From a plasmid: DNA of 64,000 bases. Both the position numbers and the translations under genes were made by a program. The stretch lies in sequence record NZ_CP014093.1. One strand, written 5' to 3'. The notes below the pieces were generated by a model. It did no database searches, had not been told where the DNA came from, and worked only from the letters and a program-made list of their open reading frames with translations. Positions within the stretch are counted from its first letter, which is position 1; the number at the start of each line of letters is the position of its first letter. This document shows, piece after piece, positions 4,284 to 51,992 of the stretch.

Positions 4284-4957
4284 CCGCTTTCAGTGTCAAC
4301 AAGCCTGACAGCTCAGGGGCTCATTGGGCTTTTGCCTCTTACTACGATGGAACCAACATTCGTGCTGGTATTCAGATTCTTACAAACTCTGATGGTCGGA
4401 TTAGATTCTACACTAACCGTAGAAGCAAGCATGTAGAGGTATATAGTGGCAACGTATATGCGGGTGCGCCTCAAAGCTCGGCGGGTCACTCATTAGCGCG
4501 CAAGGATTACGTAGACTCTAAAGTTGCTTCTTTGAACCGTAGCGGTGAGTCTGCTATTGGTAGCGGAGGACAGTTAAGGGCGGGAAATATCACAATTGGC
4601 TCAACCACATGGGAATACAAGGATTGGATAGGCCATTATCTCGATCCGTTTGATTTGGTTGCATACAATACTCCGGTGTCAGGGTTTGATATTCGTGTTG
4701 CAGGTTATTACGACATTCAATGGACTCCGATACGACGACGAAATGCCGTGAATGACTCGATTGTTTACTCAGCCATTACTAAGAACGGCGTTATCATTTC
4801 AGAGTCAGAGAGCTTGTCTAACGACTATTGTGCATCCACGATCACTTGTCGATGGGTTGGGAAGCTAAATCGCGGCGATTTAATTCAGTTCCTAGACAGG
4901 GGCGCGTCAACGGCGGTTAAGGGTTCGCATTTCTCGATCCGCTACATCAAGCCATAA
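4265..4957 (+). CDS. tail-fibre C-terminal part; probably continuous with 2334..4283 across a G6 tract
   Basis: Overlaps the previous ORF by 19 nt exactly at GGGGGG (4264-4269). A 1-nt slip gives '...YYDSTWGGNGVAAF...'. Confidence 0.4.
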   Translation: MGGNGVAAFSVNKPDSSGAHWAFASYYDGTNIRAGIQILTNSDGRIRFYTNRRSKHVEVYSGNVYAGAPQSSAGHSLARKDYVDSKVASLNRSGESAIGSGGQLRAGNITIGSTTWEYKDWIGHYLDPFDLVAYNTPVSGFDIRVAGYYDIQWTPIRRRNAVNDSIVYSAITKNGVIISESESLSNDYCASTITCRWVGKLNRGDLIQFLDRGASTAVKGSHFSIRYIKP

Positions 4958-4995: not shown

Positions 4996-5058
4996 AAAGT
5001 TTTCGCATGCGAGAACTTTAAAACATGTCATTCCCTAAAGTTTTCGCATGCGAAAACA
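4996..5058. repeat. 2 copies of the 22-bp palindrome AAGTTTTCGCATGCGA(A/G)AACTT
   Basis: Read directly; the same motif occurs at 14.2-19.3 kb. Confidence 0.9.
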
Positions 5059-5357
5059 TGGGCGCATATTGATGCGAAAGCCAATATTTATATAATCTGC
5101 CTTGTCAAACATCGATTCGACTCGACTATCCTCGTTGTAAGTTTTGTTTGCGTTGCCGCGCAACAAAACGCTTGGACTTGCCTCTCGCCTACCTTTTGGG
5201 TGAGAGGCTTCTTTTTTATATAGGCTCTTGAAATATAAATTTTTTTCCGCAAACCAGCCCTATTTAATACCTATTCAAAAGTAAGTAACGCCCGTCTATT
5301 GAGCAAAAGACATAATTCCGAATACACTCGCCAGGTAACATATAAAAGGGGGATTTA

Positions 5358-5681
5358 ATGCCAGTGTCAGTTGTTGGTGAGAGCTTTGCGATTAGCGTAC
5401 TGGCTCTATCTGTCCTCAGTGGTGTTGGGTCATATCTCCAAGGCATACGCGAGCAACGTTTGGCTGGTGGATTCCTTGATTTTTTAACCGAGCTAACGCT
5501 GGCGTTGGTGGTCGGTTTGATAGTCGCTTACTTGTGTGAAAGCGAGGGGGTGGAGGCTGGTTACACCAGCTCGCTTGTCCTCATTGCGTCGAACAACGGA
5601 GCAGACTCGATCAACTTTATCCGCAAGCTGACTAGCCAAACGTTAGCGAGATTTTTTAATACCGGAGGGCAAAGCAAATGA
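5358..5681 (+). CDS. hypothetical small hydrophobic protein
   Basis: ORF with two hydrophobic segments; no recognised motif. Confidence 0.3.
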   Translation: MPVSVVGESFAISVLALSVLSGVGSYLQGIREQRLAGGFLDFLTELTLALVVGLIVAYLCESEGVEAGYTSSLVLIASNNGADSINFIRKLTSQTLARFFNTGGQSK

Positions 5682-6091
5682 TGGCATTTGCAGTGATTGG
5701 CCTAGCCATTGCTGACCGATTTTTGCTTAAACGAAACGCAGTAAGAATACTGCATGCAAACCAGATGGACGATCCCGATGTGATTCGATTCGTTCTTGGT
5801 TATCAATCTCAGCGAGCCATAACGAGTGGGACTTTAACCTATTCGTTGCGCAGTAAGAAACGACCAAAAGCCGTCATTACTCGCACACGTAAGCTCGACT
5901 TTTCACACGCCAGAAATAACAGCGAATACCTAACGTTCGACCGCAAATTGCTTGAACGTGAAGCAGGGGAAAAGCTACACGGCGAGTGGATTCTGGACGT
6001 GAAGATTGAGCGCTCCTGTTCCCTAATCAATCCGCTATACAAAATCTTCCCTACCTGTACGACATATTCAGAGGAATTTGAAATTGCGTAA
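5678..6091 (+). CDS. hypothetical protein
   Basis: ORF whose start overlaps the upstream stop (ATGA). Confidence 0.3.
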   Translation: MMAFAVIGLAIADRFLLKRNAVRILHANQMDDPDVIRFVLGYQSQRAITSGTLTYSLRSKKRPKAVITRTRKLDFSHARNNSEYLTFDRKLLEREAGEKLHGEWILDVKIERSCSLINPLYKIFPTCTTYSEEFEIA

Positions 6092-6710
6092 CAACAGCAA
6101 GTTTGCACTAGACCAGTCGCACAACTATGTGGTGGTCGATTTTGACAACGTGACCGAACGCGGCCTTAAGAGTCTGATCACTGCGTTAAAACAAGCGGGT
6201 GCGACTGTTACAGACGTAGAAGCCTCGAACAAGAAAACGAGACGAGACGGCGAGACAGTAAAACGCGCCAAACTGTTCTTTGATAATGGCCAGTCCATGA
6301 CGCTGTTTGTGGGTGATGAGGGTGACATTTTCCAAATGACACTGAACAACACGAAACAGCCTATCCCAAGCGTGAAGAACGAGCGCGAGCTTGCGCGTGA
6401 AATGGTTCGCCTAATGGAGCGCAACCAAAGCAAGTTTGACAAGCAAGTGGCTCGCAAAGCGGCACAGGCCGTTAAAGACACCTCAGACATTCAACCAGCC
6501 ACACGTTCTATTGCTAAGCGATTGGAAGAAGCCAAGGCAGCCGAGCAGGTTGCACAATCCAATTACACCAACGCCCTAGCCGCTCGGGACAGTGTTCGCA
6601 CGAAGTTGGAAGAAGACCAACGCCGTGTAGCCGATCTTGAAGCTGCATTAGAGCAAGAGAAGCAAGAAACCAAGGAACTTGAAGCGCAATTAGAGGCGGC
6701 AAAGTCTTGA
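6078..6710 (+). CDS. hypothetical protein with coiled-coil C-terminus
   Basis: Heptad-like 'LEEAKAAEQ...LEAALEQEKQETKELEAQLEAAKS'. The stop directly abuts the IS end. Confidence 0.35.
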   Translation: MKLRNNSKFALDQSHNYVVVDFDNVTERGLKSLITALKQAGATVTDVEASNKKTRRDGETVKRAKLFFDNGQSMTLFVGDEGDIFQMTLNNTKQPIPSVKNERELAREMVRLMERNQSKFDKQVARKAAQAVKDTSDIQPATRSIAKRLEEAKAAEQVAQSNYTNALAARDSVRTKLEEDQRRVADLEAALEQEKQETKELEAQLEAAKS

Positions 6711-6850
6711 CATACTCCCCTAGCTAATTCGCTAGGGGATTCTTAGTTCAACACGCTTTCACTAGATAGCCTCTTTTGAGGCTATCCCCGATCCAGTCGC
6801 TCCCTAAGCTAACCCCGCCAGTCCAGCGGTTTTTATATTCTTCGCTGCGT
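6711..6850 (-). ncRNA. putative omega/reRNA at the tnpB 3' end
   Basis: By family knowledge TnpB elements encode a guide RNA overlapping the tnpB 3' end and right end. Two stable hairpins are present here. Confidence 0.3.
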
Positions 6851-7898
6851 TAATATCACGATCATGGTGCGTATTGCATTCTGGACAAGTCCAGTTTCGG
6901 ATATTAAGCGGCATTGATTCGTGTACGAACCCACAACAGCTACAACGCTTTGAACTAGGGAAGAAGCGTTCTATCTCAACGATAGTTCGTCCAGCCCATT
7001 CTGCTTTGTATTTGAGTTGGCGAACGAACTCGCCCCAACTCGCATCAGCGATGTGTTTTGCTAGTTTTGGATTGCGGAGCATGTTCTTCACTTGTAGCGA
7101 TTCAACACAAACAACTTGGTTTTCGTTTATCAGTTTACGAGACAACTTGTGTAAGTTGTCTAATCGACTATCAGCAATTTTTGCGTGTAGACGGGCTACT
7201 TTCTGGCGCACCTTGTCGCGGTTCTTACTGCCTTTCTTTTTCTTGGCGAGTTTACGCTGTAGGTATGCCAGTTTGTTTTCGTAGCGCTTTGTGTGGCGAG
7301 GATTATCGACTTTCTCACCGCTATCTGTGATGAACAGGTTATTTAAACCCAAATCAATACCGACCGTTTTAGCGGTTACAGGCATTGGTTTAGGCTCAAA
7401 ACGGCATAGCATAGACACAAAGTATCGGCCTGCGGTGTCTTTTGAGATTGTGACTGTGGTTGGTTCGCTAGGTAGTTCACGACTCCAACGGATATTAAGC
7501 GGCTGCTTGGACTTGGCAATAAATAGCTGTCCATCGCGGAACTTAAATGCAGATTTAGTGAACTCAGCAGACTGTTTGTGACGTTTCTTTTTTTCGACAG
7601 GGTATTTTGCTCGACCCTCAAAGAAATTCTTAAAAGCAGCTTGCTGATGACGTAGTGATTGTTGCAAAGGCACACAAGAAACATCATTAAGCCAGCTTAA
7701 CTCCGGATCTTTCTTAAGCTCGGTTAATCGGCTTGATGCTGCGTTGTAGTTCACCTTAATTTTGTCATTACGGTAAGCGTCAGTTCTCCAACGTAGGATT
7801 CTATTGTAAACAGTTCGCACACAACCGAACGTTCTTGCTAGAAGTTCAGCTTGCTCATCAGTTGGATAAAACCGTTGTTTGATTGCGATCTCTTTCAT
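6804..7898 (-). CDS. tnpB: TnpB (OrfB) RNA-guided nuclease-like transposase accessory protein
   Basis: N-terminus 'MKEIAIKQRFYPTDEQAELLARTFGCVRTVYNRIL'. C-terminal zinc finger 'CSCCGFVHESMPLNIRNWTCPECNTHHDRDINAAKNI' (RuvC-III + CxxC..CxxC). Confidence 0.85.
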   Translation of the reverse strand: MKEIAIKQRFYPTDEQAELLARTFGCVRTVYNRILRWRTDAYRNDKIKVNYNAASSRLTELKKDPELSWLNDVSCVPLQQSLRHQQAAFKNFFEGRAKYPVEKKKRHKQSAEFTKSAFKFRDGQLFIAKSKQPLNIRWSRELPSEPTTVTISKDTAGRYFVSMLCRFEPKPMPVTAKTVGIDLGLNNLFITDSGEKVDNPRHTKRYENKLAYLQRKLAKKKKGSKNRDKVRQKVARLHAKIADSRLDNLHKLSRKLINENQVVCVESLQVKNMLRNPKLAKHIADASWGEFVRQLKYKAEWAGRTIVEIERFFPSSKRCSCCGFVHESMPLNIRNWTCPECNTHHDRDINAAKNIKTAGLAGLA

Positions 7899-7966
7899 GT
7901 CTTACAAACGCTTTTGACTTAACTCATTGAGTTAGCCCCGCAATAAACGGGGCTTTCTCTCCCGAT

Positions 7967-8236
7967 TTAACTTGTCTGGAAGTCCATTTTTTCTAGGGCG
8001 CACTCAAAACCCTTAACAAATAAGGTTTGGTAATCTTGGGTAGGGTTATCAGTAAGCGCTCCGCCACAAAGCAGCCAATCTTGAAAATGCTGTTCTGGCG
8101 AGTCGTTCCAATCGACAGGTTGTAAGGCGTTGTAGATCTGACAAAGAAGCTCTACAGGCGCGTTTAGATCTTGGGAGAGGTAGTCTTGCGCAGCTTGAAG
8201 TGCGGCGCACATGTTGATTGTAGAAGTACCAATCAT
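7967..8236 (-). CDS. hypothetical protein
   Basis: ORF ending at the IS left end. Confidence 0.3.
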   Translation of the reverse strand: MIGTSTINMCAALQAAQDYLSQDLNAPVELLCQIYNALQPVDWNDSPEQHFQDWLLCGGALTDNPTQDYQTLFVKGFECALEKMDFQTS

Positions 8237-8705
8237 GATTTTTGTCCTAGTAAGTTGATGTTTAACTCACCAAAACCGAGGTCAATCAGTGGTGGTGAGC
8301 TGATTCGAGATTGACCTTACCGCCTACTAGGAAACGGCGCACCGAAGTGCTCCCAAACCAGCCCACCATAATTAGGATGTGCAGATTTTACGCAATAAAA
8401 AACCAGCAGGATGCTGGCGACTTGCGCCTAGTAAGTTTCGAGAGGTCAATCTCGACACTGGATTTTGCCAGTGCCCAAATAGATTAACTCCGAAAAAATA
8501 GGTTTTGCAAGTCGTTTTTTTTAAATATAATTTTTTATATGCAATCTGGCAAGCATTAAAAACGTTGGTTTTAATGTTGCGTTCGGAATAGAATCAATAA
8601 ACTCTTTCCTCATAATTCCCCTAATCACCACAATAGAATTAACTACAAAGGGCAGCGTTCCTCCCCTCCCTCTTTCGGGAGGGGTATCCACGCTGAAACA
8701 TTTAG

Positions 8706-11700
8706 ATGATGTTTACCAGTCAAAATCAAATCAAGATTGTGGATCGCATCGACCATCTAGCTAAAACGCTAACACCGGAGCAAATCGAAGCGGCACTGCA
8801 AGGTGAAAACGCTGACCAAATCCTAGAAGCACTATCGCTTGAGGATTTGGAAAACACTTACCTATACCAGTGCAAACCAGTGCCTCAAATGATGCTAGAG
8901 GCGTTCAAATCAAAAGCGTCAAAGCTTGAGTTTCGTGCTCAGCAATTTGGTAAGCACTTGGAACGTAAAACGCCTACGCTATCGGTAGAAGCTGTAGAAG
9001 TGGGTAAACCGCGCAAATCTGGTGCGGTCGCTGTTCAAATGGTGAAAATCCCATTCTCGGATGGCCAGAGCATTTCTATTGCGTTCCATGCGCCGGATAA
9101 CGATCCGCTAAAAATCAATCCAGATGACACGCTAATCGCGTTCCGCTTCCTAATGAACTCGCGCGATATTACTCACGTAGTCGCGCCAAAAGGCAACATG
9201 GATTTGTCTCTTAAGGAAGTGACCAACAAGCTAGCGCAGTTGCTTGAAAACAACAGTGAGAAATTTGTCGCTGCTAAGGCCAAGAAAGACGCTGACAAGA
9301 AAGCATTGGAAGAAGCGCAACAAAAGGCACAAGAACTTGATGAACAAGCTGCGCAACTAGGCGAAGAAGCTACCGAATTGGAACAAAAGCTCGATGAGCT
9401 GGCCAAGAAAGAGAAGCGCTTGGAAACTCAGATCGCTACGCAGAACGAAATCCAAGAAGAACTACGCAAACAGCTTGCTGCTATCAAGCCAGCAGCAAAT
9501 ACAGCAACGAAAAATGTAAACGCTGGTGGCAGTTCGTCTCAAGTGATCGAGCAATGGGACGCTTCATGGACTAAGCAAGAGAAGCGCGACTTCATCATTA
9601 ACCGTGCTTTCAATGGCGATCTTGATGCCTTTGTTAAGCAGCTAAGCCAAGAGTTTAAAGACTCATTAGAGTTTGCAGGTGCAGCAAATCAAAACGTTCC
9701 TAGCACTTATTCAGAGTCGTACATCAATGATGTGATTTATGACCTCGATAAAGGTGCTATGACGGTATCAGAGCTTGCCGAGGCTAAAGAATACATCCGT
9801 GATTCAATTGAAAACGATTTTCCTCAGTTGTCAGACGAAGAACGGGAACGAAAAGCAAATATCGAGCGCAAAGAATGGCTATTGGCTCTTATTGGTCGCA
9901 AGACCATTGCTAAGGGCTGGAAGATGGATAAAGGCGAAGATAGCGAGCCGTTTGTCTACTTCGAATCGCCTGACACGAACGACGATGATAGCTTTGGCCA
10001 GTACATGATCCACGCGCGCGATAACCAAACCTTGGCTGTCACTTACGGCGAGGGTTCACCGCTTGCTGGTGGCGACGATCTACAAGGTTGGGAAGCTGTT
10101 AAATCACTTATTCTGGCTGACTACGATCGCGAATCTAAGTTGCTTCAAGATACCGATGACAGCAACGAAGAACCACAACCAATTGAGAACGACGAGCCAA
10201 ACGCGAACGACCAAGACAAAGACGAAACCACGGATAACCTATTCTGGTATGGCCTACGTCTACGCCCTTATGGCTTGGGTACAACGCCGCCACAACATCA
10301 AGTGGCTAAGTACCTCGATCCAGAATCGGCTAAAGAGCAATTCGCTGACGCTGGTAATGGCATTCGCCACGGTGCGATCGCTTATGACCAAAAACTGCCA
10401 CCAGAACTAGTAAGCAACTTTGACCTAGAGCCGCTATTTGGCATGGTTGAGGGCGACCTAGAAGAAGCGGAGCGCATCGCAACCGAAGCGCTAGACCAAT
10501 GGGTTGAGGACAAAGGCGTTGATGAAATTCCTCAGTCTACGCTCGATACCCTAAAACAAGTGGGCTTCAAAGCAGCGTTCGCTAAGCAGCTACGCCAGCA
10601 ACCAGAAATGAAGAACCGCAAGGAAAATCCAAACGCGTACAAGCTATGGAGCGCATCGATTGACCTTGTGACGCCGGACATGATTCAAGAGATTGCCGAA
10701 GACCTAATGCTGGTTCAAAGCGATGCTGAATTACAGCGCCAAGCAGAACACACGCAAGGCCGCATGCGCTTCCAAGAAGCAGCTCTATCCCAACTTAAGG
10801 ATATGCAGTCAGTAAACCCAAGCGATCGCAAACGTCTTGTTATGTTAGCTGACCTAACGCTAGGTACTGGTAAAACACTAAAACGTGGCGAGAAAGTGGA
10901 TGACCAAGCTAAGCGTATTTCAGAACAAGCGCACCTAGTGGAATCACTACAAGGTGAAACCCTAGCGTCACTGGAAGCGCAATTTAAGAACCGCAAAGAG
11001 ATCACTGATTTCCTAACGGCTCATCGCATTCCATTTAACCGCCGTGCGAAACGCGCTGACCTACTGCAAGCTATCTTGAACTACCGTGACGGATTCTTTA
11101 GTGCAACGGCGAAAATGTTCGACCTACGCGCGCTACGTGGCGACCTATACGAGAAGTTTGAGAACGGCGAAGCGTTAGCACTGGATGACGTAGAAAAAGC
11201 GTTTAGCGCGACTACGGTTTACCATGAGGGAGACGTAGCTTACACCAAGGCAAAAGGTGAAACCGTCATTCCAGCAATGGCAGACCAAGGCGAGGACTAC
11301 CAAAAAGTTGAGCGCTTCATTAAGGCGATTGATGACGGTATCTACCCTGACCTATCCGAACTAAGTTCAGATGAGCTCTTTGCTCAGCACTATGCAATGG
11401 CAAGTGTTACCAACCAAGACATCCTGGCAATTCATGGTTTTAGATACTTGGATAACGATGAGCAGATCGACAATGAACAGATGGCGCGCGCTATCCATAA
11501 CTCGGTCATGCCATTGTGGTACACAAAAGCTATCGAAGCGGAATACGAAAGCCGTGGCTTCCCTAGCCTTGCTGCGTTGCCTGACTTGAACCATAAAGGT
11601 CAATTCAAGGCGACACGCGAGAAACGCTACGCACCAGTTGGCACTATTGGCCAATCTGATTTTAGCGTTATCGATACGTACACAGGCAAGGTGCTAGAAA

Positions 11701-13499
11701 CTGGCCTAGAGGGTGCAGCAGCGCAGCAAAAAGCGACTCAACTAAACGACCAAGCAGTGAAAGAAAGCACTATTACAATCTTTAACATGCTTAAGGACGG
11801 CAAAACGCTTGAGCAAATTGCAGAGACGGAATACAGCGCACCACTAGAGCCTGTCAGTCCGGCCATGTTCACCACAATCAACGGCTTTGAATCATTGTAT
11901 TCAACGTTAGCCATTAACGGCTCGGGTTCGCTTCACTCGCGCCCAACACTACGCGAGAACGCCGACAAGCTACTGGCTAAGGTGGACGCTGACGGCAAGA
12001 TTAACGATATTGCGCTAACCGAAGAACAAGAGAACCAAATGGAAAATACATTTGGCTACAGTTTCTTCTCTGCGAAGTCGAACAAGGGTAAAGAGCTACG
12101 CTTTATCGCTAACACCAATTCTCGCAGCTACCTAACGGTTGACGGTGCTAACAAACTGCTTGAGCTATTGGGTGCTAAGAGCGCCGTAGAATCTGACACA
12201 GCAGATGAAATGAGCAAGGGTGCATCCGAGGAAGAAAAACAACTTCTCGCACTAGACCCAACTCAATATTCATTTGGCTCAATCTATGAGAGCGAGGGCA
12301 TTCGAGATACGGGTGAAATCGCTAAGCGAATCCGCGCCTTTATCGCTCAGCTTAAGACAGCTGGCAAGATCAGTAATGACGTTAAAATCTCAGTACGCAA
12401 GCCTCGCTACGGCACACTAGACCTAACGCTGACTGACTTGCCAAGAAACGTCATGCTCTACAATCCAGCTTACCTACAGTTCGAGATTGATAACCCTAAC
12501 TCGCCAGCGCCACACGGTATGAGCCGTTATACCGAAGCAGTAGATCAGCTGATCGAGTTCGTTAACGCTTATGTAGGCCAATACGACTACAACAACAGCG
12601 ACACGATGACCGATTACCACGATCGCAATTTCTTTGGTGGCCGCCTAACCGTGGACTTTGATTTTGGTAAAGAGCGCAAAGTGGTAGAGCTCGCGTCTCT
12701 AACTGAAATGCACCAGCAAGGCGAACAGGCAGAGGATGACGTATTAGACGTTACCTCATTCCGTGAAAGCCTAGATGAAGAAGAAGCGAAAGCACTTGAG
12801 CAGCTAGAAGCCTTTACCAACCTAGAGCTAAAACTTGGTAAGCAGGAAGTGACTTTCCCAACAGGCCGAGTGAAGTCGATTAATGCGAAAGATGAGGACG
12901 GACTAACTTACAGCCTAGACGTTCTATTCGACATTCTAGTGACCGACTTAAGCGAAAAAGCGAAAGCTCAACTTGAGACGATTAAGGACTGGCAATCTGC
13001 GGATGCCTACTACAACGAAAAAGGCGCATTGGTACAACCAAGTGTTGCGGCAGGTATCCACTCAGTAAATGGCTCAGTGCCAGCGAACGTGTACGCTCCG
13101 CTAATCGCCCGTTCATGGTTAAATGAAAGCCACGCTGACATTTATCCGATCGCTAAAGATGGCGAGTACAAGTTCGCGCTATACCAAGGCAACGACTTGA
13201 TCGGTGAATTTGACGATACAGCGGAAATGGAAGCGCTATTAGTGAAAGCGTTCAATCTAAGTAGTGAAGCACCTCAATCTGAAACAGAGGGCAATAACGA
13301 AGAAATGGAACATGTAGAGAAACTAAAGGAAATCCGAGATTTTACTGGTGAACCTACGCCGGAATTGGTTGATGAGTTCCAAACCGCACTAGAACAGGCT
13401 TACGCCCACTTCGAAGCTAACGACCAAATAGCAGAGAACGAAGCGTTGATGGATGCCGCTCTAAGCAACATCACAAGCATGATCCAAGCGCAAATTTAA
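8706..13499 (+). CDS. giant hypothetical protein (1597 aa), coiled-coil N-terminal region and acidic low-complexity stretches
   Basis: Uninterrupted 4.8-kb ORF. 'EEAQQKAQELDEQAAQLGEEATELEQKLDELAKKEKRLE' coiled coil; 'DTDDSNEEPQPIENDEPNANDQDKDE' acidic tract. No catalytic motif recognised. Confidence 0.5.
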   Translation: MMFTSQNQIKIVDRIDHLAKTLTPEQIEAALQGENADQILEALSLEDLENTYLYQCKPVPQMMLEAFKSKASKLEFRAQQFGKHLERKTPTLSVEAVEVGKPRKSGAVAVQMVKIPFSDGQSISIAFHAPDNDPLKINPDDTLIAFRFLMNSRDITHVVAPKGNMDLSLKEVTNKLAQLLENNSEKFVAAKAKKDADKKALEEAQQKAQELDEQAAQLGEEATELEQKLDELAKKEKRLETQIATQNEIQEELRKQLAAIKPAANTATKNVNAGGSSSQVIEQWDASWTKQEKRDFIINRAFNGDLDAFVKQLSQEFKDSLEFAGAANQNVPSTYSESYINDVIYDLDKGAMTVSELAEAKEYIRDSIENDFPQLSDEERERKANIERKEWLLALIGRKTIAKGWKMDKGEDSEPFVYFESPDTNDDDSFGQYMIHARDNQTLAVTYGEGSPLAGGDDLQGWEAVKSLILADYDRESKLLQDTDDSNEEPQPIENDEPNANDQDKDETTDNLFWYGLRLRPYGLGTTPPQHQVAKYLDPESAKEQFADAGNGIRHGAIAYDQKLPPELVSNFDLEPLFGMVEGDLEEAERIATEALDQWVEDKGVDEIPQSTLDTLKQVGFKAAFAKQLRQQPEMKNRKENPNAYKLWSASIDLVTPDMIQEIAEDLMLVQSDAELQRQAEHTQGRMRFQEAALSQLKDMQSVNPSDRKRLVMLADLTLGTGKTLKRGEKVDDQAKRISEQAHLVESLQGETLASLEAQFKNRKEITDFLTAHRIPFNRRAKRADLLQAILNYRDGFFSATAKMFDLRALRGDLYEKFENGEALALDDVEKAFSATTVYHEGDVAYTKAKGETVIPAMADQGEDYQKVERFIKAIDDGIYPDLSELSSDELFAQHYAMASVTNQDILAIHGFRYLDNDEQIDNEQMARAIHNSVMPLWYTKAIEAEYESRGFPSLAALPDLNHKGQFKATREKRYAPVGTIGQSDFSVIDTYTGKVLETGLEGAAAQQKATQLNDQAVKESTITIFNMLKDGKTLEQIAETEYSAPLEPVSPAMFTTINGFESLYSTLAINGSGSLHSRPTLRENADKLLAKVDADGKINDIALTEEQENQMENTFGYSFFSAKSNKGKELRFIANTNSRSYLTVDGANKLLELLGAKSAVESDTADEMSKGASEEEKQLLALDPTQYSFGSIYESEGIRDTGEIAKRIRAFIAQLKTAGKISNDVKISVRKPRYGTLDLTLTDLPRNVMLYNPAYLQFEIDNPNSPAPHGMSRYTEAVDQLIEFVNAYVGQYDYNNSDTMTDYHDRNFFGGRLTVDFDFGKERKVVELASLTEMHQQGEQAEDDVLDVTSFRESLDEEEAKALEQLEAFTNLELKLGKQEVTFPTGRVKSINAKDEDGLTYSLDVLFDILVTDLSEKAKAQLETIKDWQSADAYYNEKGALVQPSVAAGIHSVNGSVPANVYAPLIARSWLNESHADIYPIAKDGEYKFALYQGNDLIGEFDDTAEMEALLVKAFNLSSEAPQSETEGNNEEMEHVEKLKEIRDFTGEPTPELVDEFQTALEQAYAHFEANDQIAENEALMDAALSNITSMIQAQI

Positions 13500-13509
13500 T
13501 CACAACCAA

Positions 13510-13531
13510 GGCCGCCACTTCGGCGGCCTAA
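13510..13531 (+). terminator. GC hairpin GGCCGCC-ACTT-CGGCGGCC after the giant ORF (no U-tract)
   Basis: Inverted repeat read directly; the missing T-run makes intrinsic termination uncertain. Confidence 0.3.
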
Positions 13532-13546
13532 ACCGGAGACAATCAA

Positions 13547-14251
13547 GTGTTAAGCTTAAGAGAAAAAATGACGCTCAACCGCGATGCTGCGGGTTTATTG
13601 AAAGAGCTTAAGAGTGGCCAGCTATCGATTGGTGAACGCATCAAAAAGAACCGTGAGCTGGTGGAAATTCTTAATAAACTGACTGGCGCTAACCAAAAGG
13701 TTGAGCAGGAGCCGGTATCAAGTTCGGATGAGCCAATATCGGTAGAAGAATTTTCCAAGTTAGGCCGCTCCGATAAGATTGAAAAGCTCAATGAAGTGCT
13801 ACTTCTGCCTAACTGGTACGAATACGAAATGGCGTTTTTCCCTAACTACCAAATGGTTGAAAAGGGCGATAACTACGTTGTGTACAAGGATGGCGAAAAC
13901 TTCCAGTTTGGCTACAAAGGGCATATTGCGCGAGGTTTGGACTACTGGAAAAACGATGCGGGCTCAGCCAAGAAAAATGGTGGTTTTGGTAGCTGGTCGC
14001 GCGCTGACCGTAGCAAGGCTATCAAGACCATCACTAAGCACATTGAGCAGAATGAGCGCGACAATGGCGAACGTCCAGTTGAACAAAGCGAACTGGTTGC
14101 GAGATTCCTTGCAGGGGAGTTTAATACAGCCAAGCCATCGTTGTTTGTTGATGTAATGCGAGACGTTCACTCAGAGGGCTTGGAGCTAGATAGCATCAAG
14201 CAAAAAGCGATTGAATGGTTCGAGCACAATCCTGACAAACTGGCCGCTTAA
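13547..14251 (+). CDS. hypothetical protein
   Basis: ORF; no recognised motif. Confidence 0.4.
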   Translation: MLSLREKMTLNRDAAGLLKELKSGQLSIGERIKKNRELVEILNKLTGANQKVEQEPVSSSDEPISVEEFSKLGRSDKIEKLNEVLLLPNWYEYEMAFFPNYQMVEKGDNYVVYKDGENFQFGYKGHIARGLDYWKNDAGSAKKNGGFGSWSRADRSKAIKTITKHIEQNERDNGERPVEQSELVARFLAGEFNTAKPSLFVDVMRDVHSEGLELDSIKQKAIEWFEHNPDKLAA

Positions 14252-14586
14252 GTTTTCGCATGCGAGAACTTTTTTGCATGGAGCGCGAAAGACACGGATG
14301 TTTTCGCATGCGAGAGCTTTAAAACATGACATTCTATATATTTTTCGCATGCGAGAACTTTAAAGAATCTCGTTCGATATAGTTTTCGCATGCGAAAACT
14401 TTTCAGAGAACTTGAGAAAAAACAATGAATGTTTTCACTAAAATCCGAGCAGACTATTACTACAAGCAATCTTTAAACCTTGCACTAGCAGCCAGCGAAC
14501 GTCAAAACTACGCCAAGGCGCTTTTCGCATTGCTTAAGAGCCTTTAATCCGTTTCCCTGTCCCAAAAGTTTTCGCATGCGAAAACT
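14248..14586. repeat. cluster of 5 full copies plus 1 degenerate copy of the 22-bp palindrome, about 20-nt spacers
   Basis: Copies at 14248, 14300, 14341, 14381 and 14564; degenerate copy at 14521. Confidence 0.9.
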
Positions 14587-16021
14587 CGCCACTCCAACCG
14601 GAGCGGTCAAATTGAACCAACTCACATCAATTAGCGCCGAAATCAAAGAGGCGAAAAACATCAATGACCTAGCCGAGATTGTTCAACTGTACGCAACAGA
14701 CAATCCAAAACCCAAGCTAGGACGCACCAGCTACGTTGTGACAGCAAAAGGCGACGAAGTGGAAACAGGCTTTAAAGTCGTGGAAGCCAGCGACCTTATT
14801 CCATCGAACGACTTAGACGGTCGAATCAATCCGAACTTCCCGCAAGAACTGCAACCGCGCGACCGTACTCGCGTATCCTCAAAATTGCAGATCTCAAAGA
14901 TGGCCAACGATTTGCGTCCACAACAATTAACCGATTCTGGACTATCTAGCCACGGCGCACCGATTGTCGGTGCAGACAATGTGGTGGAGTCGGGGAACGG
15001 TCGAACCATCGCTATCATCAAGGCGTATCGAGAGGGTAAGGCTGATAAGTACCGCCAGTTCCTAATCGACAATGCGGAGCGCTTCGACCTATCACCGGAG
15101 AAAGTTGAGAGCATGCGCGAGCCAGTGTTGGTTCGAGAACGTGTTACCCAAGTTAACCGTGCTAAGTTTGCCCGAGATTCCAACCTCTCTGACTTGCAAC
15201 AAATGAGCGCAGCCGAGACAGCTTGGGTTGACGCAGAGCGCATCGATGACCGCATGATTGCTCTATTCCAACCGAGCGAAACAGGCAACCTTTTGGCCAA
15301 GTCTAACCAAGGATTTATAAACAGTTTCTTAACTGAAATTGGGGATAACTCAACCGCCGGACTACTTACTGAAGATGGCCGACCAACCAAGCAACTGATT
15401 GAGCACATGCAAAATGCCGTGTTTGCCAAGGCGTACAAAAACGAGAAGTTGGTGAAGCTGGTAGCCGAGGAAGCCGATCCCGAAATTCGCAACATTTTGA
15501 GCGCGCTAAACGGCGCAGCAAGCGCGTTTGTTGAGATGCAATACCTTAGCGGAGAGGTGCATAAAAACACGTCTGGAACGCTGGCAGAAGCCGTGGAAAT
15601 TAACGCCTCACAACCTGACCTCGCTAAGTCAGCACTTGACTCACTGGTGCAAGCAACCGAGCTAGTAAGACAGGCCAAAGATTCCGGTCAACACATCGAT
15701 GAGCTATTGGCTCAGTCCGGTTTGTTTGGCGACAACGATCCCGAGGCCGAAGCGCTGGCGAGATTCATTGCTGCTAACAACCGAAGCGCAAAACGCATGA
15801 CACTGGCATTTAAGGCAATGGCCGAGGCAATCAATAGTGAATTGCTTCACCAAGGCCAAGCGCTCGGGGATATGTTTGGCGGCGGTGGTGCATCGCTTAT
15901 TGATATTCTTGGGCGTGTAAATCAAGAGCTGGAAAACGAGGGGGTACAAACAGGCTTTATGTTCGAGTCTAGTGTGCAACTGGACGAACTTGCAAACGCT
16001 TCGAGGCATGCTATAAAATAG
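14576..16021 (+). CDS. ParB/Srx-like nuclease-domain protein (start uncertain; TTG at 14612 with GGAGCG Shine-Dalgarno is more plausible than the ATG inside the palindrome)
   Basis: 'ELQPRDRTR...GAPIVGADNVVESGNGRTIAII' matches ParB N-domain boxes (QPR; G-x-x-R-x-x-A). Confidence 0.5.
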   Translation: MRKLATPTGAVKLNQLTSISAEIKEAKNINDLAEIVQLYATDNPKPKLGRTSYVVTAKGDEVETGFKVVEASDLIPSNDLDGRINPNFPQELQPRDRTRVSSKLQISKMANDLRPQQLTDSGLSSHGAPIVGADNVVESGNGRTIAIIKAYREGKADKYRQFLIDNAERFDLSPEKVESMREPVLVRERVTQVNRAKFARDSNLSDLQQMSAAETAWVDAERIDDRMIALFQPSETGNLLAKSNQGFINSFLTEIGDNSTAGLLTEDGRPTKQLIEHMQNAVFAKAYKNEKLVKLVAEEADPEIRNILSALNGAASAFVEMQYLSGEVHKNTSGTLAEAVEINASQPDLAKSALDSLVQATELVRQAKDSGQHIDELLAQSGLFGDNDPEAEALARFIAANNRSAKRMTLAFKAMAEAINSELLHQGQALGDMFGGGGASLIDILGRVNQELENEGVQTGFMFESSVQLDELANASRHAIK

Positions 16022-16078
16022 TTCTTGGCATATATTGCCTATACAACCTTTATAGACACACAAAAACGCCAGATTTAA

Positions 16079-16447
16079 TTGTCAAATCTGGCGTTTTTGC
16101 ATTTGGGAGTAGGGGATGTTTACTATCAGGCATCGTTATCACTACGGGCTAATCGACATAAACGAAGATGGCGTTGCCGATGGCCATTCAGTCGCAGGAA
16201 TGAGATCCCCGCTTTAAGGAAAGATGGCGAGTATATCTACAGACCATTTAAAGGGGCGCTAGATAATATCTATCTACTGCATGTCCAAAAGGTAAAGCTG
16301 GTGAATATCGTCGCTTATTGCGATGACGAACTAGGGCTATTTGGCTGGCAAGACGTGCCGCTCGATCACTATGTGGTTGGTGTCTACCGTGACGGCGGGT
16401 ATTACGTCCTAACGAAAAACGGGCAGCTAATTAGCCACCCGCTTTAA
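16079..16447 (+). CDS. hypothetical protein
   Basis: ORF followed by one palindrome copy (16446-16470). Confidence 0.35.
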   Translation: MSNLAFLHLGVGDVYYQASLSLRANRHKRRWRCRWPFSRRNEIPALRKDGEYIYRPFKGALDNIYLLHVQKVKLVNIVAYCDDELGLFGWQDVPLDHYVVGVYRDGGYYVLTKNGQLISHPL

Positions 16448-16468
16448 AAGTTTTCGCATGCGAGAACT

Positions 16469-17385
16469 TTACACACGATACCCAACTAATTGAGCTTCAC
16501 CAACTGGCACTTGCTCAAGTTCGCCATCATCAAACAGTACCGTTAGCTTGTCGCTATGCTTACCAGATGCGAACACCAAACCATGACGGTCATTAACCAT
16601 GACACAAATACTGGTAGGCTTTTGGTTTGCCGTAGGCTTTTTGCTTACTGGTGTCTTATCGGTCTTTTCTGCTTTCTCTGGTTTGCTAGGTTGAGGTGCA
16701 ACTTCCACCTTGCTATCTAGCTCGCCAGTGCGCAGTTTTACACAATCTTGGCGTGTTAGCTTCTCGCAGCTTTCCAGCGCTTCACGAACGCGCTCAGAGT
16801 TATCGACGGTTGCTTTGCGTAGTTCGTTGATGGACTCTACATCACCAATAATCCCTTTTTGGAATGCTTCCAAAACAAAGTCAGGGCTTTAAGCACATTT
16901 AGGTATTTCGAAATGTAGCCGTCTGATTTGCCAAGGCGCTTAGCCAAGCCACGGTTATCCAGATTGTGCTTTTTCTTTGCTTGGTCAAACGCCTTACCTA
17001 ATTCGATTGGCGTTAAATCTTCTCGCTGAATGTTTTCAATGAGCTGACCAAAAATATCGCCCTTTTCACGGACAATACATTCAACGTGAGTTAGCTTATC
17101 GCTCAACATAGTGGCGCGCCAACGGCGTTCACCCTCTTGGATTTTGTATCCCTTGCCATCAAACGGGTAAACAACGACAGGTTGAATTTGGCCGTTTTCT
17201 TCTAGGCTTTCGCACAACTCAAGTAGTGATTCATCATTAAATTCTTCACGAACTTGCTCGACTGAATACAAAGAGTCTTTAGGGATAGCCAACACTTTCG
17301 CTGCATCGCGGATTTCTACCTCTGATTCATCCAAGAGATTATCTAGGTCGCTAAGCTTGATTCGATCTCTTAAACTTTTGGTCAT
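16469..17385 (-). CDS. parB: ParB partition protein, split by a 1-nt frameshift near 16840-16875
   Basis: N-part 'PVVVYPFDGKGYKIQEGERRWRAT' (GERRxRA box) plus HTH 'LGKSDGYISKYLNVLKAL'. C-part continues in the other frame ('DFVLEAFQKGIIGDV...'). Combined length about 320 aa. The start overlaps the parA stop (ATGA). Confidence 0.7.
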
Positions 17386-18155
17386 GCTGTCACCTCTACC
17401 ATGCGCTTGCAAAGTTCCTCACAAACCGCTGTAAAGCCGAATTTCTCAGCCGCTTTAGGGTTGGTTTCAATCAGTGCTTTGCCTTGGTTTAGAGCTTCAC
17501 TTACGCGCGTTGTTTTAATCAGTTTGTTTTCAAAAACTAGGTTGCCGTACTCTTTACGAAGTTCCGCTTCCTGTTCGCGCTGGTCGTTTGTAATGTTGGC
17601 TTCGATAAGGTTTAGGACAATGCCTAATACTTCCAAGTCAGGGTTCATTCGACGGATTTGGCGCGAGGTCTTAACCAGCTCATTAACGCCTTTGATCGAC
17701 ATTTTTTGTGCTTGGCTAATGATAAGTAGCTTACTGGCCACAAGTAGCGCTGCATGCTGTAGCGCGTTCGCCGCTGGTGGACAGTCGATAAAGATATAGT
17801 CGTAGTCGTCTTTGATAAGGTCGATAGACTCAGCCACGTTTAAGATTTGTGATTGAGTAATGTTACCCATGCGCTTATCGCCGCCAATAACGTGTACGTT
17901 TTCGCTGACTTCGAAAGGTTTAGCCTTTACTGGATTTTCAAAAAGGTTGTAAGCGTTGTGTAGGCAGCTCGCAGATGTGTACTCTGGATTCTCGACCATT
18001 TCCGGTGCGATTGAGCCGCCTAAGTTGTTTTGTGGGTCAAAGTCCAGGAATAGACATTTGTTGCCTTGACTAGCGATGCTAATGCCAAAGTTGTAAGTAC
18101 AAGTTGTTTTACCAACGCCGCCTTTTTGGTTGGCAATCGCCATGATAATGCTCAT
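17382..18155 (-). CDS. parA: ParA/Soj-type partition ATPase
   Basis: Deviant Walker A 'AIANQKGGVGKTT'; typical ParA length. Confidence 0.9.
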   Translation of the reverse strand: MSIIMAIANQKGGVGKTTCTYNFGISIASQGNKCLFLDFDPQNNLGGSIAPEMVENPEYTSASCLHNAYNLFENPVKAKPFEVSENVHVIGGDKRMGNITQSQILNVAESIDLIKDDYDYIFIDCPPAANALQHAALLVASKLLIISQAQKMSIKGVNELVKTSRQIRRMNPDLEVLGIVLNLIEANITNDQREQEAELRKEYGNLVFENKLIKTTRVSEALNQGKALIETNPKAAEKFGFTAVCEELCKRMVEVTA

Positions 18156-18158
18156 TAA

Positions 18159-18398
18159 TTAATTTCCTTTGCTGGTGGAATTTGTTTGCTGTTTTGGTTT
18201 GCTCAGTGCTACCTCAAGATCCTCGATATAGCACTGAACTACGTAATCAGTTGTACCGCCGCCGTGCATTGCTTTGTAAATAGCAGTGTGGCAAGGGCTT
18301 ACACCCTTAACGCCATCAATGAGCTGCTTGGCTTTTCTGGTACTTCCTGCCTTTTGGACTAATTGATTTAATCTTTCGCATCGTTCCTTGGATGCCAT
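18159..18398 (-). CDS. small hypothetical protein, first gene of the par operon
   Basis: 79-aa ORF ending 4 nt before parA. Confidence 0.35.
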   Translation of the reverse strand: MASKERCERLNQLVQKAGSTRKAKQLIDGVKGVSPCHTAIYKAMHGGGTTDYVVQCYIEDLEVALSKPKQQTNSTSKGN

Positions 18399-18498
18399 AT
18401 CAATGCCTCTCGATTGTTGTCACTGGCAACAGGCACACACTATACGTTGCCAGTAGCAACAGCACAAGAAAAAAAAGTAACAAACAGAACCGATTGCA

Positions 18499-18571
18499 CA
18501 AGTTTTCGCATGCGAGAACATTAGATAAATTGTGAGATTGATTCCATGTGTTTTCGCATGCGAAAACTTTT
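18499..18571. repeat. 2 copies of the 22-bp palindrome in the par promoter region
   Basis: 18499-18520 and 18550-18571. Confidence 0.9.
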
Positions 18572-18699
18572 TGACAATTCTATTACTTAACTAGGTTACA
18601 AAGAGCAGCGTCAACAGGCATAAGAAGGGAAAAGCACCTAGTTGCATAATTCATTGTTTTTAATAAAAAAATATTGAAAAACCCGTTGAATATGAAAAT

Positions 18700-18826
18700 T
18701 ATTTCATATAAATTAAATTACAGATAGGCGGCAACAAAACTATTAGGGGTAGGATTGATTGCATCAAAGCTTATCTGTTCAACGTGCAATCCCCGCCATT
18801 TGTTCAGTGGCGGGGTTTATTTTTTC
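18700..18826 (+). ncRNA. candidate small RNA ending at a strong intrinsic terminator
   Basis: Noncoding AT-rich stretch ending in CCCCGCCA-tttgttcag-TGGCGGGG plus TTTATTTTTT (18791-18826). Confidence 0.25.
18790..18826 (+). terminator. rho-independent terminator
   Basis: 8-bp GC stem plus U-tract. Confidence 0.6.
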
Positions 18827-18832
18827 TATCTC

Positions 18833-18856
18833 AAAAGTTTTCGCATGCGAAAACTT
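18833..18856. repeat. 22-bp palindrome copy
   Basis: AAAAGTTTTCGCATGCGAAAACTT. Confidence 0.9.
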
Positions 18857-19292
18857 AACGCATCGATTTGCTGTTAACACTCCACGCTTCGAGATTTACG
18901 TCCTCGATAGAATATTCAAATTCTTCATCATCGACGTAGTAGGTATGTAGGTTTGCTTGCCAGTAGCCTTTATCAACTTGCTCTTGCTGGTACGCCCACG
19001 CAGCACACAACAAAATCGCAGAGTCTTCGAAATTGAAGTGTTGCTCTGTGATCACTTCTGAATCGCTGCCAAGGTCATAACCATGCTTGGCCATGAGCGA
19101 TTTAACCGCCCACCAATAAGCGCCATAGTGACGGTACATGAGCGGATTGGCTTTAAGTGTTTTGTAAATGCCATCTACTTGAGCTTGGATAAATGCTTCT
19201 TTGCTTTGCGCTGTTTCTAGCGCCTCATCGAGTAAGGGCTGTAGATCTTCAACGGTAGGCAATTTCACTTGGGTAATCATTTTTGTCTCCAA
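18855..19292 (-). CDS. acidic hypothetical protein (145 aa) immediately downstream of the DarB-like gene
   Basis: ORF rich in Asp/Glu with aromatic residues. Confidence 0.35.
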   Translation of the reverse strand: METKMITQVKLPTVEDLQPLLDEALETAQSKEAFIQAQVDGIYKTLKANPLMYRHYGAYWWAVKSLMAKHGYDLGSDSEVITEQHFNFEDSAILLCAAWAYQQEQVDKGYWQANLHTYYVDDEEFEYSIEDVNLEAWSVNSKSMR

Positions 19293-19333
19293 AAAGTTTT
19301 CGCATGCGAAAACTTATCGCATGCGAAAATTTG
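19291..19333. repeat. 1.5 copies of the 22-bp palindrome
   Basis: Read directly. Confidence 0.9.
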
Positions 19334-31081: not shown

Positions 31082-32158
31082 ATGAGTGATGAAGAATATT
31101 TCTACCCTGCGGTAAGCGATAACCTCCCGAAACATATCAAAAAAGGCCATCAACTGGTCTTTAGTCGTCAAGATCTATCCGCTAGGGAAGCTGATATGTT
31201 TGCGTTGATGATTGCACATATGAAACCAAGTGATTGGGAGAAGAAAACACCACACTATGAATTTACTTCACATCAATTATCAGAGTGGTTAGGTGTTGAG
31301 TCTAAACATATCGGTAGCAACTTAAGTCCAGTAGCGAACCGCCTAGCTAGTCGAAAAATCGGGATAAAGGTGGAAACCCCGAAAGGTGATATTGAATTCG
31401 ACTATAGACCTCTTTTTAAACATATCGCTTATAAACACGGCATACTTACGATGGTTCCTAACGATATGCTCAAACCTGAGTATATTGAATATAATCAAGG
31501 ATTTGCTCTGATTAATACTCGCAATTTCTTTGAGGTGAAAAAGGAGTATTCTAAGCGCTTGTACGAACTGCTTAGTCGCTTCAAAGACAAGGGCTTTGAA
31601 ATGCATGCGCAAAAGCTTAGTGAACTGAAAGGAATATTTGGGCTTTTGGACGAATCAGGGAAGCTGAAGAAAGATAAAAGTTCCTTCAAAAACAACAGCG
31701 TATTTATGAAACGTTGTATCAGGGAAAGTATTAAAGAACTTTCTGAACACCCTCAGATTAGCAAAGAGCTTTTATTTTTAGAAAGTAGCCAAGGTGATAA
31801 GGGGTTTGAGGTTGTAAAGAAAGGTAGAACCATTACTGGAATCAAGTTTCTCTTCCGGTGGGTTAAACTAGGTTCAATTGATGAGTTAAATCAACACGAT
31901 GCTCTTAAGACAATTAGACAACTTGAATTGAAAAGGCTTCAAAACCAAGTCAGACTCACCGAGTCTGAACTAGAATCACTTGCCATCGCGTACCGCTATG
32001 TGGGTAAAGAAGACCACGCTCTTAAAGTTGAAGATAGCTTGTCAAAACGATACTCAGAAAAAGAGCAACAAAAGCATGATGATGGAATACATGAACTAGA
32101 GTCGTTAATGGAAAAGATAGATACCCTTTCAGAACTAACCGATACTCACGATTACTGA
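31082..32158 (+). CDS. replication initiator (Rep) of an iteron-type replicon
   Basis: 358-aa ORF flanked on both sides by direct repeats with the ACCTAAAATATGT core. The role is assigned from context; no sequence family was recognised. Confidence 0.5.
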   Translation: MSDEEYFYPAVSDNLPKHIKKGHQLVFSRQDLSAREADMFALMIAHMKPSDWEKKTPHYEFTSHQLSEWLGVESKHIGSNLSPVANRLASRKIGIKVETPKGDIEFDYRPLFKHIAYKHGILTMVPNDMLKPEYIEYNQGFALINTRNFFEVKKEYSKRLYELLSRFKDKGFEMHAQKLSELKGIFGLLDESGKLKKDKSSFKNNSVFMKRCIRESIKELSEHPQISKELLFLESSQGDKGFEVVKKGRTITGIKFLFRWVKLGSIDELNQHDALKTIRQLELKRLQNQVRLTESELESLAIAYRYVGKEDHALKVEDSLSKRYSEKEQQKHDDGIHELESLMEKIDTLSELTDTHDY

Positions 32159-51834: not shown

Positions 51835-51992
51835 TTGCTCTGACGAAGAGTTGTTTGAAGATAAAAAATATAAAGTAAGTTTTCCAGTGTCATCCCTAGC
51901 AAGTTTTTCTCTGTATCTCCCTTAATTCTATATCCTTAAAATAATACTTATGTTCAGTGCACCTTAATTTTAATTTATATAAGGGGCATAAT
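51835..51992 (+). promoter_or_regulatory. long csp 5' leader, copy 1
   Basis: About 160-nt leader upstream of cspA; repeated at 52259-52397. Confidence 0.5.

Follow-up and report, generated by a model that had tools for sequence, protein, structure and literature searches.

Dispersed palindromes around parAB of a P1-like Vibrio phage-plasmid as probable binding sites of its ParB

A set of thirteen closely similar palindromes lies around the partition genes parA and parB in a 64,000-nucleotide stretch of plasmid NZ_CP014093.1 (hereafter the window). Judged from their sequence and by analogy with characterized plasmids, these palindromes are very probably the specific DNA-binding sites of the ParB protein that the element itself encodes, i.e. 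its parS sites or the equivalent of the OB sites of plasmid RK2. Dispersed ParB centromere sites, perhaps serving as operators too, had been proposed in an original prediction made from the same DNA, and that proposal is supported by several lines of evidence. Palindrome and ParB occur and vary together across replicons, no proteins but ParA and ParB are common to all palindrome-bearing loci, and the homologous pair of plasmid NAH7 has been characterized by electrophoretic mobility shift assay (EMSA) and by stability assays. Further support comes from a P1-like relative whose par system is of another kind, in which the palindrome is missing from the homologous region.

The element in question is a P1-like phage-plasmid of Vibrio alginolyticus. 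The open reading frames (ORFs) around the sites encode a LydA holin, LydB, DarA_N and DarA proteins, a DdrA-like protein, a DdrB-ParB-domain protein, a Ulx-like protein and a 2239-aa DarB-like protein, and the DarB-like gene is followed by portal and head-processing genes. Both the backbone and the gene order (lydA-lydB-darA-ddrA-ddrB, ulx-darB, portal-pro) are those of phage P1. A megablast search of the phage collection gave no match, and nine plasmids of V. alginolyticus or Vibrio sp., 93-217 kb in size, are 95-98% identical. The P1 gene order together with these near-identical Vibrio plasmids identifies the element as a P1-like Vibrio phage-plasmid. Its rep gene, for a Rep3 initiator, lies at 31082-32158, 12 kb from the sites, and several helix-turn-helix (HTH)/PadR regulators are encoded elsewhere on the phage-plasmid.

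Number, sequence and layout of the palindromes

The 22-mer AAGTTTTCGCATGCGAAAACTT was searched in the window with up to three mismatches allowed, and 100 dinucleotide-preserving shuffles served as the control. The window contains thirteen matches, at 4997, 5038, 14250, 14298, 14339, 14380, 14566, 16448, 18500, 18548, 18835, 19294 and 19311, and the shuffles contain none, in agreement with the number originally counted. Every one of the thirteen includes the exact 10-bp core TCGCATGCGA. Together they span 4997-19332, or 14.3 kb around parAB, with none expected by chance. No further site was found in the window, and its remaining 45 kb hold two one-mismatch TCGCATGCGA cores against 2.45 expected. 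The predicted concentration around parAB is thus real, with the core at chance level elsewhere.

Other details of the prediction needed correction. The copies had been described as perfect over 22 bp, a description that fits only those at 18835 and 19294; perfect 16-mers (TTTTCGCATGCGAAAA) are found in six of the thirteen. An A-to-G variant, said to be CGAGAAC and to affect about half of the copies, is indeed present in six sites, invariably on one and the same strand, and reads either CGAGAAC or CGAGAGC. Positions had been correct in substance and off by 1-3 nt. The cluster at 14.25-14.59 kb comprises five copies, not six, and the supposed half copy at 19316 is in fact a full copy at 19311-19332, a 16-mer with one mismatch that overlaps its neighbour by 5 bp. 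The sites are listed here without strand, together with a promoter and a terminator-like hairpin that follow the first two:

4997..5018, predicted ParB site 1: G variant; upstream half of a pair spaced by 41 bp, in the gap between the tail-fibre gene and lydA
5038..5059, predicted ParB site 2: perfect 16-mer; 9 nt separate its end from the -35 hexamer of the predicted sigma-70 promoter listed next
5069..5096, plus strand, predicted promoter: TTGATG-16-TATAAT, 10/12 matches; just 3' of sites 1 and 2
5180-5208, terminator-like hairpin: after the predicted promoter at 5069..5096 and followed by lydA at 5358
14250..14271, predicted ParB site 3: opens a phased array of four sites; overlaps the stop codon of the DdrA-like gene
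14298..14319, predicted ParB site 4: array member
14339..14360, predicted ParB site 5: array member
14380..14401, predicted ParB site 6: array member, perfect 16-mer; 24 bp upstream of a 40-aa ORF
14566..14587, predicted ParB site 7: single; about 25 bp upstream of the ddrB-like gene
16448..16469, predicted ParB site 8: occupies the entire gap between a convergent 122-aa gene and parB; syntenic in L151, a divergent P1-like element
18500..18521, predicted ParB site 9: G variant; about 32 bp upstream of the -35 region of the inferred par promoter
18548..18569, predicted ParB site 10: perfect 16-mer; 48 bp from site 9
18835..18856, predicted ParB site 11: perfect 22-mer; overlaps the stop codon of the Ulx-like gene; syntenic in L151
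19294..19315, predicted ParB site 12: perfect 22-mer; 12 bp upstream of the ATG of the Ulx-like gene
19311..19332, predicted ParB site 13: overlaps site 12 at an offset of 17 bp; 3 bp past the darB stop codon

The claim that all copies are intergenic was borne out against the annotation of NZ_CP119337, a complete, 98%-identical relative of 93 kb, by the Prokaryotic Genome Annotation Pipeline (PGAP). In that annotation about 8% of the 12 kb running from lydA to the 3' end of darB is intergenic; sites, one or more, occur in five of the seven gaps there, and the 21 bp that separate parB from the convergent gene are wholly occupied by a palindrome. The ATG at 14576 in the ORF list of the window coincides with the palindrome centre of site 7 and is not the true start codon of the ddrB-like gene. 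All 14 palindromes of NZ_CP119337 fall inside one 21-kb arc, and the other 70 kb, with the head, tail, packaging and replication genes, have none. Five relatives in IMG/VR carry 12-21 sites apiece, and PLSDB holds nine records with the array and nine with a ParB of at least 95% identity. The 40-aa ORF 3' of the four-site array (14425-14547) is 45% identical to a 50-aa ORF of L151 and is an annotated gene in NZ_CP119337.

The sites are arranged as singles, as one overlapping pair with an offset of 17 bp and as phased arrays, the spacings being 41 bp at 4997/5038, then 48, 41 and 41 bp at 14250/14298/14339/14380, and 48 bp at 18500/18548. Among the relatives, neighbouring pairs are exactly 41 bp apart in 27 instances and exactly 48 bp apart in 11, and the mid-spacer sequence is variable. 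A fixed spacing across spacers of varying sequence suggests a constraint on the spacing itself, similar to that of the 43-bp units of plasmid F sopC. The latter consists of tandem 43-bp repeats, each with one SopB palindrome, and the window resembles it in having tandem units of fixed length (41 or 48 bp) with one palindrome each. The arrays of the window differ in that they are short (2-4 units), are accompanied by single dispersed sites and go with another protein family. A two-site module of about 85 bp, including part of the flank GAAAGACACGGATG, is repeated at several loci. In addition, a TAnAGT hexamer abuts the downstream members of 41-bp pairs only; a flanking TA is placed symmetrically on the other side, and the hexamer may therefore be just part of a longer palindrome.

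A parallel for dispersed centromere sites is provided by phage N15, which had been named as an analogue and whose SopB uses four dispersed inverted-repeat sites (PMC7205306). As in the window, a temperate phage is maintained as a plasmid, and the centromere is made of single palindromes scattered along the DNA rather than of one locus. Unlike the window, N15 uses SopA and SopB of type Ia, another branch of ParB proteins, with the palindrome GTGCGACCnnGGTCGCAC, and its four sites are spread over the whole genome, whereas those of the window are concentrated in about 14-21 kb around parAB.

ParB and the palindrome on other replicons

Three genes on the minus strand make up the par operon, for a 79-aa protein, a Walker-type ParA of 257 aa and ParB, in that order:

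18159..18398, minus strand, first gene of the par operon: 79 aa, phrog_18848
17382..18155, minus strand, parA: 257-aa deviant Walker-A ATPase (KGGVGKT) without an N-terminal HTH; Pfam AAA_31/CbiA/ParA
16469..17412, minus strand, parB: ParB_N, HTH_ParB and KorB domains, with GERRWRA and ENIQREDL

In the intact ParB of a relative, Pfam places the KorB domain (PF08535, E=5e-12) at residues 141-203, and matches to ParB among PDB structures are Spo0J, Noc, ParB and KorB (8qa8, 1r71). When aligned with homologues, GERRWRA and ENIQREDL correspond to the boxes GERRxRA and ENxQRxDL of the cytidine triphosphate (CTP)-binding motif of ParB proteins. An N-terminal domain with GERRxRA had been predicted and is present, in a window parB that carries a 1-nt deletion. 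By its domains and motifs, ParB is classed as a KorB-like member of the ParB-CTPase family.

Homologues of this ParB were collected, their genomic contexts were fetched and palindromes were sought in them. Two kinds of conjugative Vibrio plasmids, which have Rep3 and a TraI_2 relaxase and are not P1-like, encode a ParB of 53-56% identity and have exactly two TTTTCGCATGCGAAAA sites in 20 kb, the first upstream of parA at 17 bp from its ATG and the second 2-5 bp past the parB stop codon. The latter, a counterpart of site 8 of the window in that it lies immediately 3' of the parB stop, extends to a perfect palindrome of 28-30 bp. Another locus (L152), with a ParB of 51% identity, has one upstream site. 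The site changes with greater distance. At 44% ParB identity, on a plasmid of V. europaeus, the palindrome is ATTTTGCATGCAAAAT, which occurs seven times, always between genes and once upstream of parA; at 32%, on a conjugative plasmid from a marine metagenome, four copies of TTTGGCACGTGCCAAA surround parAB. The divergent P1-like element L151 (ParB 57%, Ulx 43% and DdrA-like protein 46% identical) has six ATTTCGCATGCGAAAT sites at places equivalent to those of the window, namely a double site between darB and ulx, and sites after ulx, before the par operon, after parB and before ddrB. The palindrome thus tracks the ParB lineage and not the phage, and it changes as ParB diverges.

The proteins held in common by these replicons are few. 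A comparison of the full set of 377 phage-plasmid ORFs with the non-phage loci that bear the palindrome gave matches for ParA, ParB and Rep3 alone, and only ParA and ParB matched at every locus; five loci (L029, L061, L109, L052 and L154) have sites and no Rep3 homologue. A species-wide scan for the 16-mer, covering 185,579 genomes with one per species, returned at least 120 loci, where about 139 chance matches are expected over the whole collection; from other Proteobacteria, the matches listed include L061, L109 and L052, with ParA and ParB beside the site. The region of the presumed recognition helix reads GK[SPT][DE]x[YF][IV]SK[YH]L in four Vibrio ParBs (53-100% identity) whose sites have the TTTCGCATGCGAAA core, and GISTSKVSAYL in a ParB with a variant site. 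Conversely, NZ_CP082309 shares the lydA-darA...ulx-darB backbone but has a ParA and ParB of type Ia and an array of 43-bp repeats, and it lacks the TCGCATGCGA palindrome altogether, its region homologous to the lysis/anti-restriction island of the window included. No other repeated palindrome able to serve as parS was found near parAB of the window.

A characterized member of this branch was found among published systems. For the exact TTCGCATGCGAA the one paper retrieved was an unrelated one on eukaryotic NRF1, and in papers on plasmid RA3 the string occurs inside a primer only; the shorter CGCATGCG combined with parS led to NAH7. In this IncP-9 plasmid, parS is the 18-bp TTTCTCGCATGCGAGAAA, of which six copies are dispersed in the intergenic backbone (Kishida et al., mBio 2025, PMC12421886). 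ParB binding was demonstrated there by EMSA, partition by stability assays, and an effect on transcription was demonstrated as well (PMC12421886). The two systems share the core (TTTCTCGCATGCGAGAAA in NAH7, TTTTCGCATGCGA[A/G]AA in the window) and the presence of several dispersed intergenic copies; the half-site of NAH7 is that of the G variant of the window (TGCGAGAA), and in both ParA has 257 aa and ParB about 305 aa. Unlike the window, NAH7 has six single sites and no 41-bp arrays, and its proteins are distant (ParB 28% identical over 179 aa, E=1e-16; ParA 26%). Its operon continues with ParR, which is KorA-like, and ParC, whereas in the window a 79-aa protein precedes parA. Finally, NAH7 is a conjugative catabolic plasmid, whereas the window belongs to a phage-plasmid.

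By homology with such systems, ParB dimers would bind the TTTCGCATGCGAAA core with each HTH taking one half-site, and the bound protein would then close into CTP-dependent clamps that slide onto flanking DNA. The approximately 14 kb from lydA to the darB 3' end could in this way become a single large partition complex, through which ParA would segregate the prophage, a low-copy plasmid. Arrays spaced by exactly 41 bp may act as miniature loading clusters resembling sopC. If so, a cis-acting function can be assigned to the most conspicuous repeat of a widespread family of Vibrio phage-plasmids, known from V. alginolyticus, V. parahaemolyticus and V. diabolicus, and the dispersed centromere-operator of the NAH7/KorB type would be extended to a P1-like phage, the arrangement as such being already known from NAH7, RK2 and N15. 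The sites also form a specificity series for this branch of ParB proteins (TTTCGCATGCGAAA, TTTTGCATGCAAAA, TTTGGCACGTGCCAAA, TTTCTCGCATGCGAGAAA), which could guide work on ParB-parS recognition and on the incompatibility of co-resident Vibrio replicons.

Contrary observations and other explanations

Several observations weigh against the proposed ParB sites and their regulatory role, and the first of them concerns sister elements. In two sister lineages with other par systems, NZ_CP082309 and two IMG/VR contigs (L160/L174 and L162/L180) each have exactly two copies of AGTTTGGCATGCCAAACT, one in the gap between the tail-fibre terminator and lydA and one in the gap between the darB stop codon and ulx (L155:19861 and L155:37133 in NZ_CP082309). 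These are the positions of window sites 4997/5038 and 19294/19311, the outer edges of the site-bearing region, and no KorB-like ParB was found in the sister elements. At the darB-ulx junction P1 has a GC-rich hairpin. A related palindrome that is kept without a KorB-like ParB suggests that those upstream of lydA and between darB and ulx may serve a ParB-independent function; from these comparisons the palindrome at the two edge junctions seems to be retained independently of this ParB. A search for the binder of the sister palindrome GTTTGGCATGCCAAAC found no KorB-like ParB, no homologue of the 79-aa protein and no similarity to the 43-bp centromere repeats. A second point is that a 1-nt deletion near 16885/16886 divides the parB of the window into two overlapping ORFs (16837-17412 and 16469-16873; 191 and 134 aa), and the sites would be orphaned in this isolate if the frameshift were real. 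In all relatives examined parB is intact (305 aa in NZ_CP119337, WP_206954275), and the frameshift is probably an assembly error, a second frameshift in the tail-protein gene making assembly indels the likelier cause. With regard to regulation, the par promoter was missed by the consensus promoter scan of the window, which called few promoters, and no KorA/TrfB domain that might mark a KorA-like partner was found in the ORFs around par.

Among other explanations, it is quite unlikely that the palindromes act through RNA or DNA structure, as bidirectional terminators, attenuators or mRNA-stabilising hairpins that owe their identity to duplication. Many sites abut stop codons (14250, 16448, 18835 and 19311), three of the thirteen are flagged as terminator-like, and the G variant can still form a G-U pair, on the plus strand only. 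The post-parB sites of the conjugative plasmids, being perfect palindromes of 28-30 bp, and the hairpin at the darB-ulx junction of P1 and of the sister clades would also be in keeping with such a role. Against it, the hairpin is weak (-7.7 kcal/mol) with an AU-rich stem of 9 bp, not 7 bp as originally stated, and a U tract is missing at most copies. True terminators adjoin some sites (5180-5208 and 18791-18815; upstream of the palindrome in NZ_CP082309), and those of one genome normally differ in sequence; moreover, exact 41-bp tandem arrays and sites upstream of parA make no sense for terminators. Intrinsic terminators, for which a G+C-rich stem and a U tract are expected, were accordingly rejected on the nature of the stem, the few flags, the tandem arrays and the sites upstream of genes, in line with the original judgement that such a role is unlikely. 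A few junctions may in addition use the hairpin in a secondary role.

It is very unlikely that the sites are operators of some other dimeric regulator, such as a master repressor or a protein that controls the Dar island, with the ParB centromere lying elsewhere. Several HTH/PadR regulators are available on the element, and AGTTTGGCATGCCAAACT at two syntenic junctions of P1-like elements without this ParB would be accommodated. On the other hand, the 16-mer flanks parAB on conjugative plasmids that have only ParA, ParB and Rep3 in common with the phage-plasmid, and the 79-aa protein of the par operon is missing from these plasmids. The site alters when ParB diverges, the ParB of NAH7 binds the same core, and near parAB there is no alternative repeated palindrome to act as parS. 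The unidentified dimeric repressor that had been put forward as an alternative is therefore not needed.

The remaining candidates are barely credible. In P1, Lpa binds a 9-bp inverted repeat at -22 of 11 late promoters, with the -10 hexamer 4 bp further on, and a comparable set of activator boxes for phage late promoters is conceivable in a P1-like element in which one pair of sites lies upstream of lydA, where P1 has LPdar. The outer bases AAGT...ACTT of the palindrome resemble the P1 box AAGTnACTT, and TAnAGT hexamers abut the downstream member of 41-bp pairs. Such promoters are contradicted by the site distribution, with no copies between darB and portal (the place of LPpro in P1), at 26-64 kb or across the 70 kb that hold the structural genes of the relative, and with palindromes next to parAB on non-phage plasmids, at gene 3' ends and between convergent genes. 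In addition, the consensus of six annotated boxes taken from AF234172 was searched and is not enriched in the window, where the P1 pattern of AAGTnACTT plus a -10 element was not found.

A selfish or host-wide repeat of the repetitive extragenic palindromic (REP) or miniature inverted-repeat transposable element (MITE) kind, or a set of Rep3 iterons, is equally hard to credit. The two-site module of about 85 bp with flank GAAAGACACGGATG does suggest duplication, and Rep3 is common to the phage-plasmid and the conjugative plasmids. Nearly all of the matches listed in the species-wide scan are singletons, and the only Vibrio match there is the same phage-plasmid, on a V. diabolicus contig, so the check for a host repeat was negative among them. 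Iterons are ruled out by the symmetry of the sites, which are palindromes and not direct repeats, by the distance to rep and by the five loci that have sites and no Rep3 homologue; iteron-like direct repeats adjoin rep in L151 and NZ_CP082309.

Possible regulation and neighbouring features

If the palindromes are ParB sites, a second role in transcription is likely by analogy: bound or sliding ParB may autoregulate parAB and modulate neighbouring operons, by silencing or activation, as do KorB of RK2 and ParB of NAH7. Sites occupy nearly all gaps of the lysis/anti-restriction island (lydAB-darA-ddrAB-ulx-darB) and some stand beside promoter-like sequences, which suggests such a role. They are found upstream of the par operon, ddrB, ulx and the 40-aa ORF, and it is plausible from these positions that they serve autoregulation and perhaps wider regulation. 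The ParB of NAH7 activates transcription, which does not imply the sign of any effect in the window. For P1, Rodionov, Lobocka and Yarmolinsky reportedly described in 1999 that ParB silences genes flanking parS. P1 differs from the window in having ParAB of type Ia and a single complex parS with a site for integration host factor (IHF).

The KorB proteins of RK2/RP4 and of the IncU plasmid RA3 are, like the window ParB, CTPases of the ParB family with a KorB domain, and the sites of RK2 serve partition as well as global transcriptional control. The operator sequence is a different one, OB of RK2 being TTTAGCSGCTAAA, and the C-terminal part of KorB is longer. RK2 also has a clamp-locking partner, KorA/TrbA, and none was found in the window. 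Its targets are replication and transfer genes, whereas those in the window would be phage lysis and anti-restriction genes. RK2 has 12 dispersed OB sites, either promoter-proximal (4-10 bp) or distal, from which KorB acts as a CTP-dependent sliding clamp (PMC11790492). The 9 nt between site 5038 and the predicted promoter fall inside the range of such proximal sites (PMC11790492).

A stronger version, in which ParB is a KorB-style clamp regulator of phage functions and the edge palindromes have an older, ParB-independent role, is doubtful and can be put forward only tentatively. ParB on 13-21 sites would then keep the island of lydAB, darA, ddrAB, ulx and the darB 3' end silenced or tuned in lysogeny, and the copy and partition status of the plasmid would be coupled to the expression of lysis and anti-restriction genes. 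Control of the island by ParB would represent a new link from plasmid partition to phage gene control, one for which the positions of the sites are at present the argument.

The par promoter may also have a local operator of its own, distinct from the ParB palindrome:

18416-18430 and 18446-18460, two copies of GTTGY-N5-RCAAC: flank a -10-like box (TATAGT, minus strand) upstream of the 79-aa gene

This pair is a candidate by its position. The motif has one intragenic copy elsewhere and no other intergenic occurrence, and at the equivalent place L151 has a different palindrome, GTTTCCATTGGAAAC. The 79-aa protein is 61% identical in L151, and neither the conjugative plasmids nor elements with other par systems encode it. 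It has no Pfam match and only two clusters of close homologues, and no PDB structure matches its four-helix AlphaFold model (predicted local distance difference test, pLDDT, 73) at better than E=4. The protein was rejected as a KorA-like partner, there being no Pfam or PDB match and the candidate operator being confined to the par promoter apart from the one intragenic copy. The 122-aa gene convergent with parB is unrelated to the 121-aa gene 3' of parB on the conjugative plasmids.

Two predicted promoter-plus-terminator units, at 5097-5215 and 18703-18822, each adjoin a pair of ParB sites. They would yield structured transcripts of about 110-120 nt with fold z-scores of about -4.5, and match no Rfam family. 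The position of the former directly upstream of the holin gene lydA suggests terminator/antiterminator control. ARAGORN found no tRNA at the sites, and the Rfam matches at the gathering threshold (cspA, isrK and C4 only) are all away from them.

NZ_CP082309 has six full tandem 43-bp repeats and a degenerate seventh unit at L155:27682-27913, with an extra copy of the repeat core at L155:30760, about 40 bp past the 3' end of its type-Ia parB, an arrangement resembling the sopC centromere. Its RepB gene is surrounded by GGTGTAGTCTA iteron-like repeats. The par/rep module of this phage family is thus exchangeable.

Elsewhere in the window, the tail-protein gene is split by a frameshift at about 4270 into two ORFs (2334-4283 and 4265-4957) that correspond to residues 15-663 and 664-892 of phrog_11029; in NZ_CP119337 the protein is encoded by a single gene of 875 aa. 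An insertion of about 2 kb at 6711-8705 separates the DarA_N gene from the 1597-aa DarA gene and is missing from NZ_CP119337. It contains an IS605-family TnpB gene (6804-7898, minus strand) and an 89-aa ORF (7967-8236, minus strand), along with Rfam matches to C4 antisense RNA (8288-8373, minus strand) and isrK (8397-8474, minus strand), which point to an RNA module like P1 immI adjoining the TnpB gene. Finally, a match to the Rfam cspA thermoregulator at 51850-52254 on the plus strand (78.5 against a gathering score of 78 bits) suggests that the phage-plasmid carries a cold-shock protein gene as cargo.

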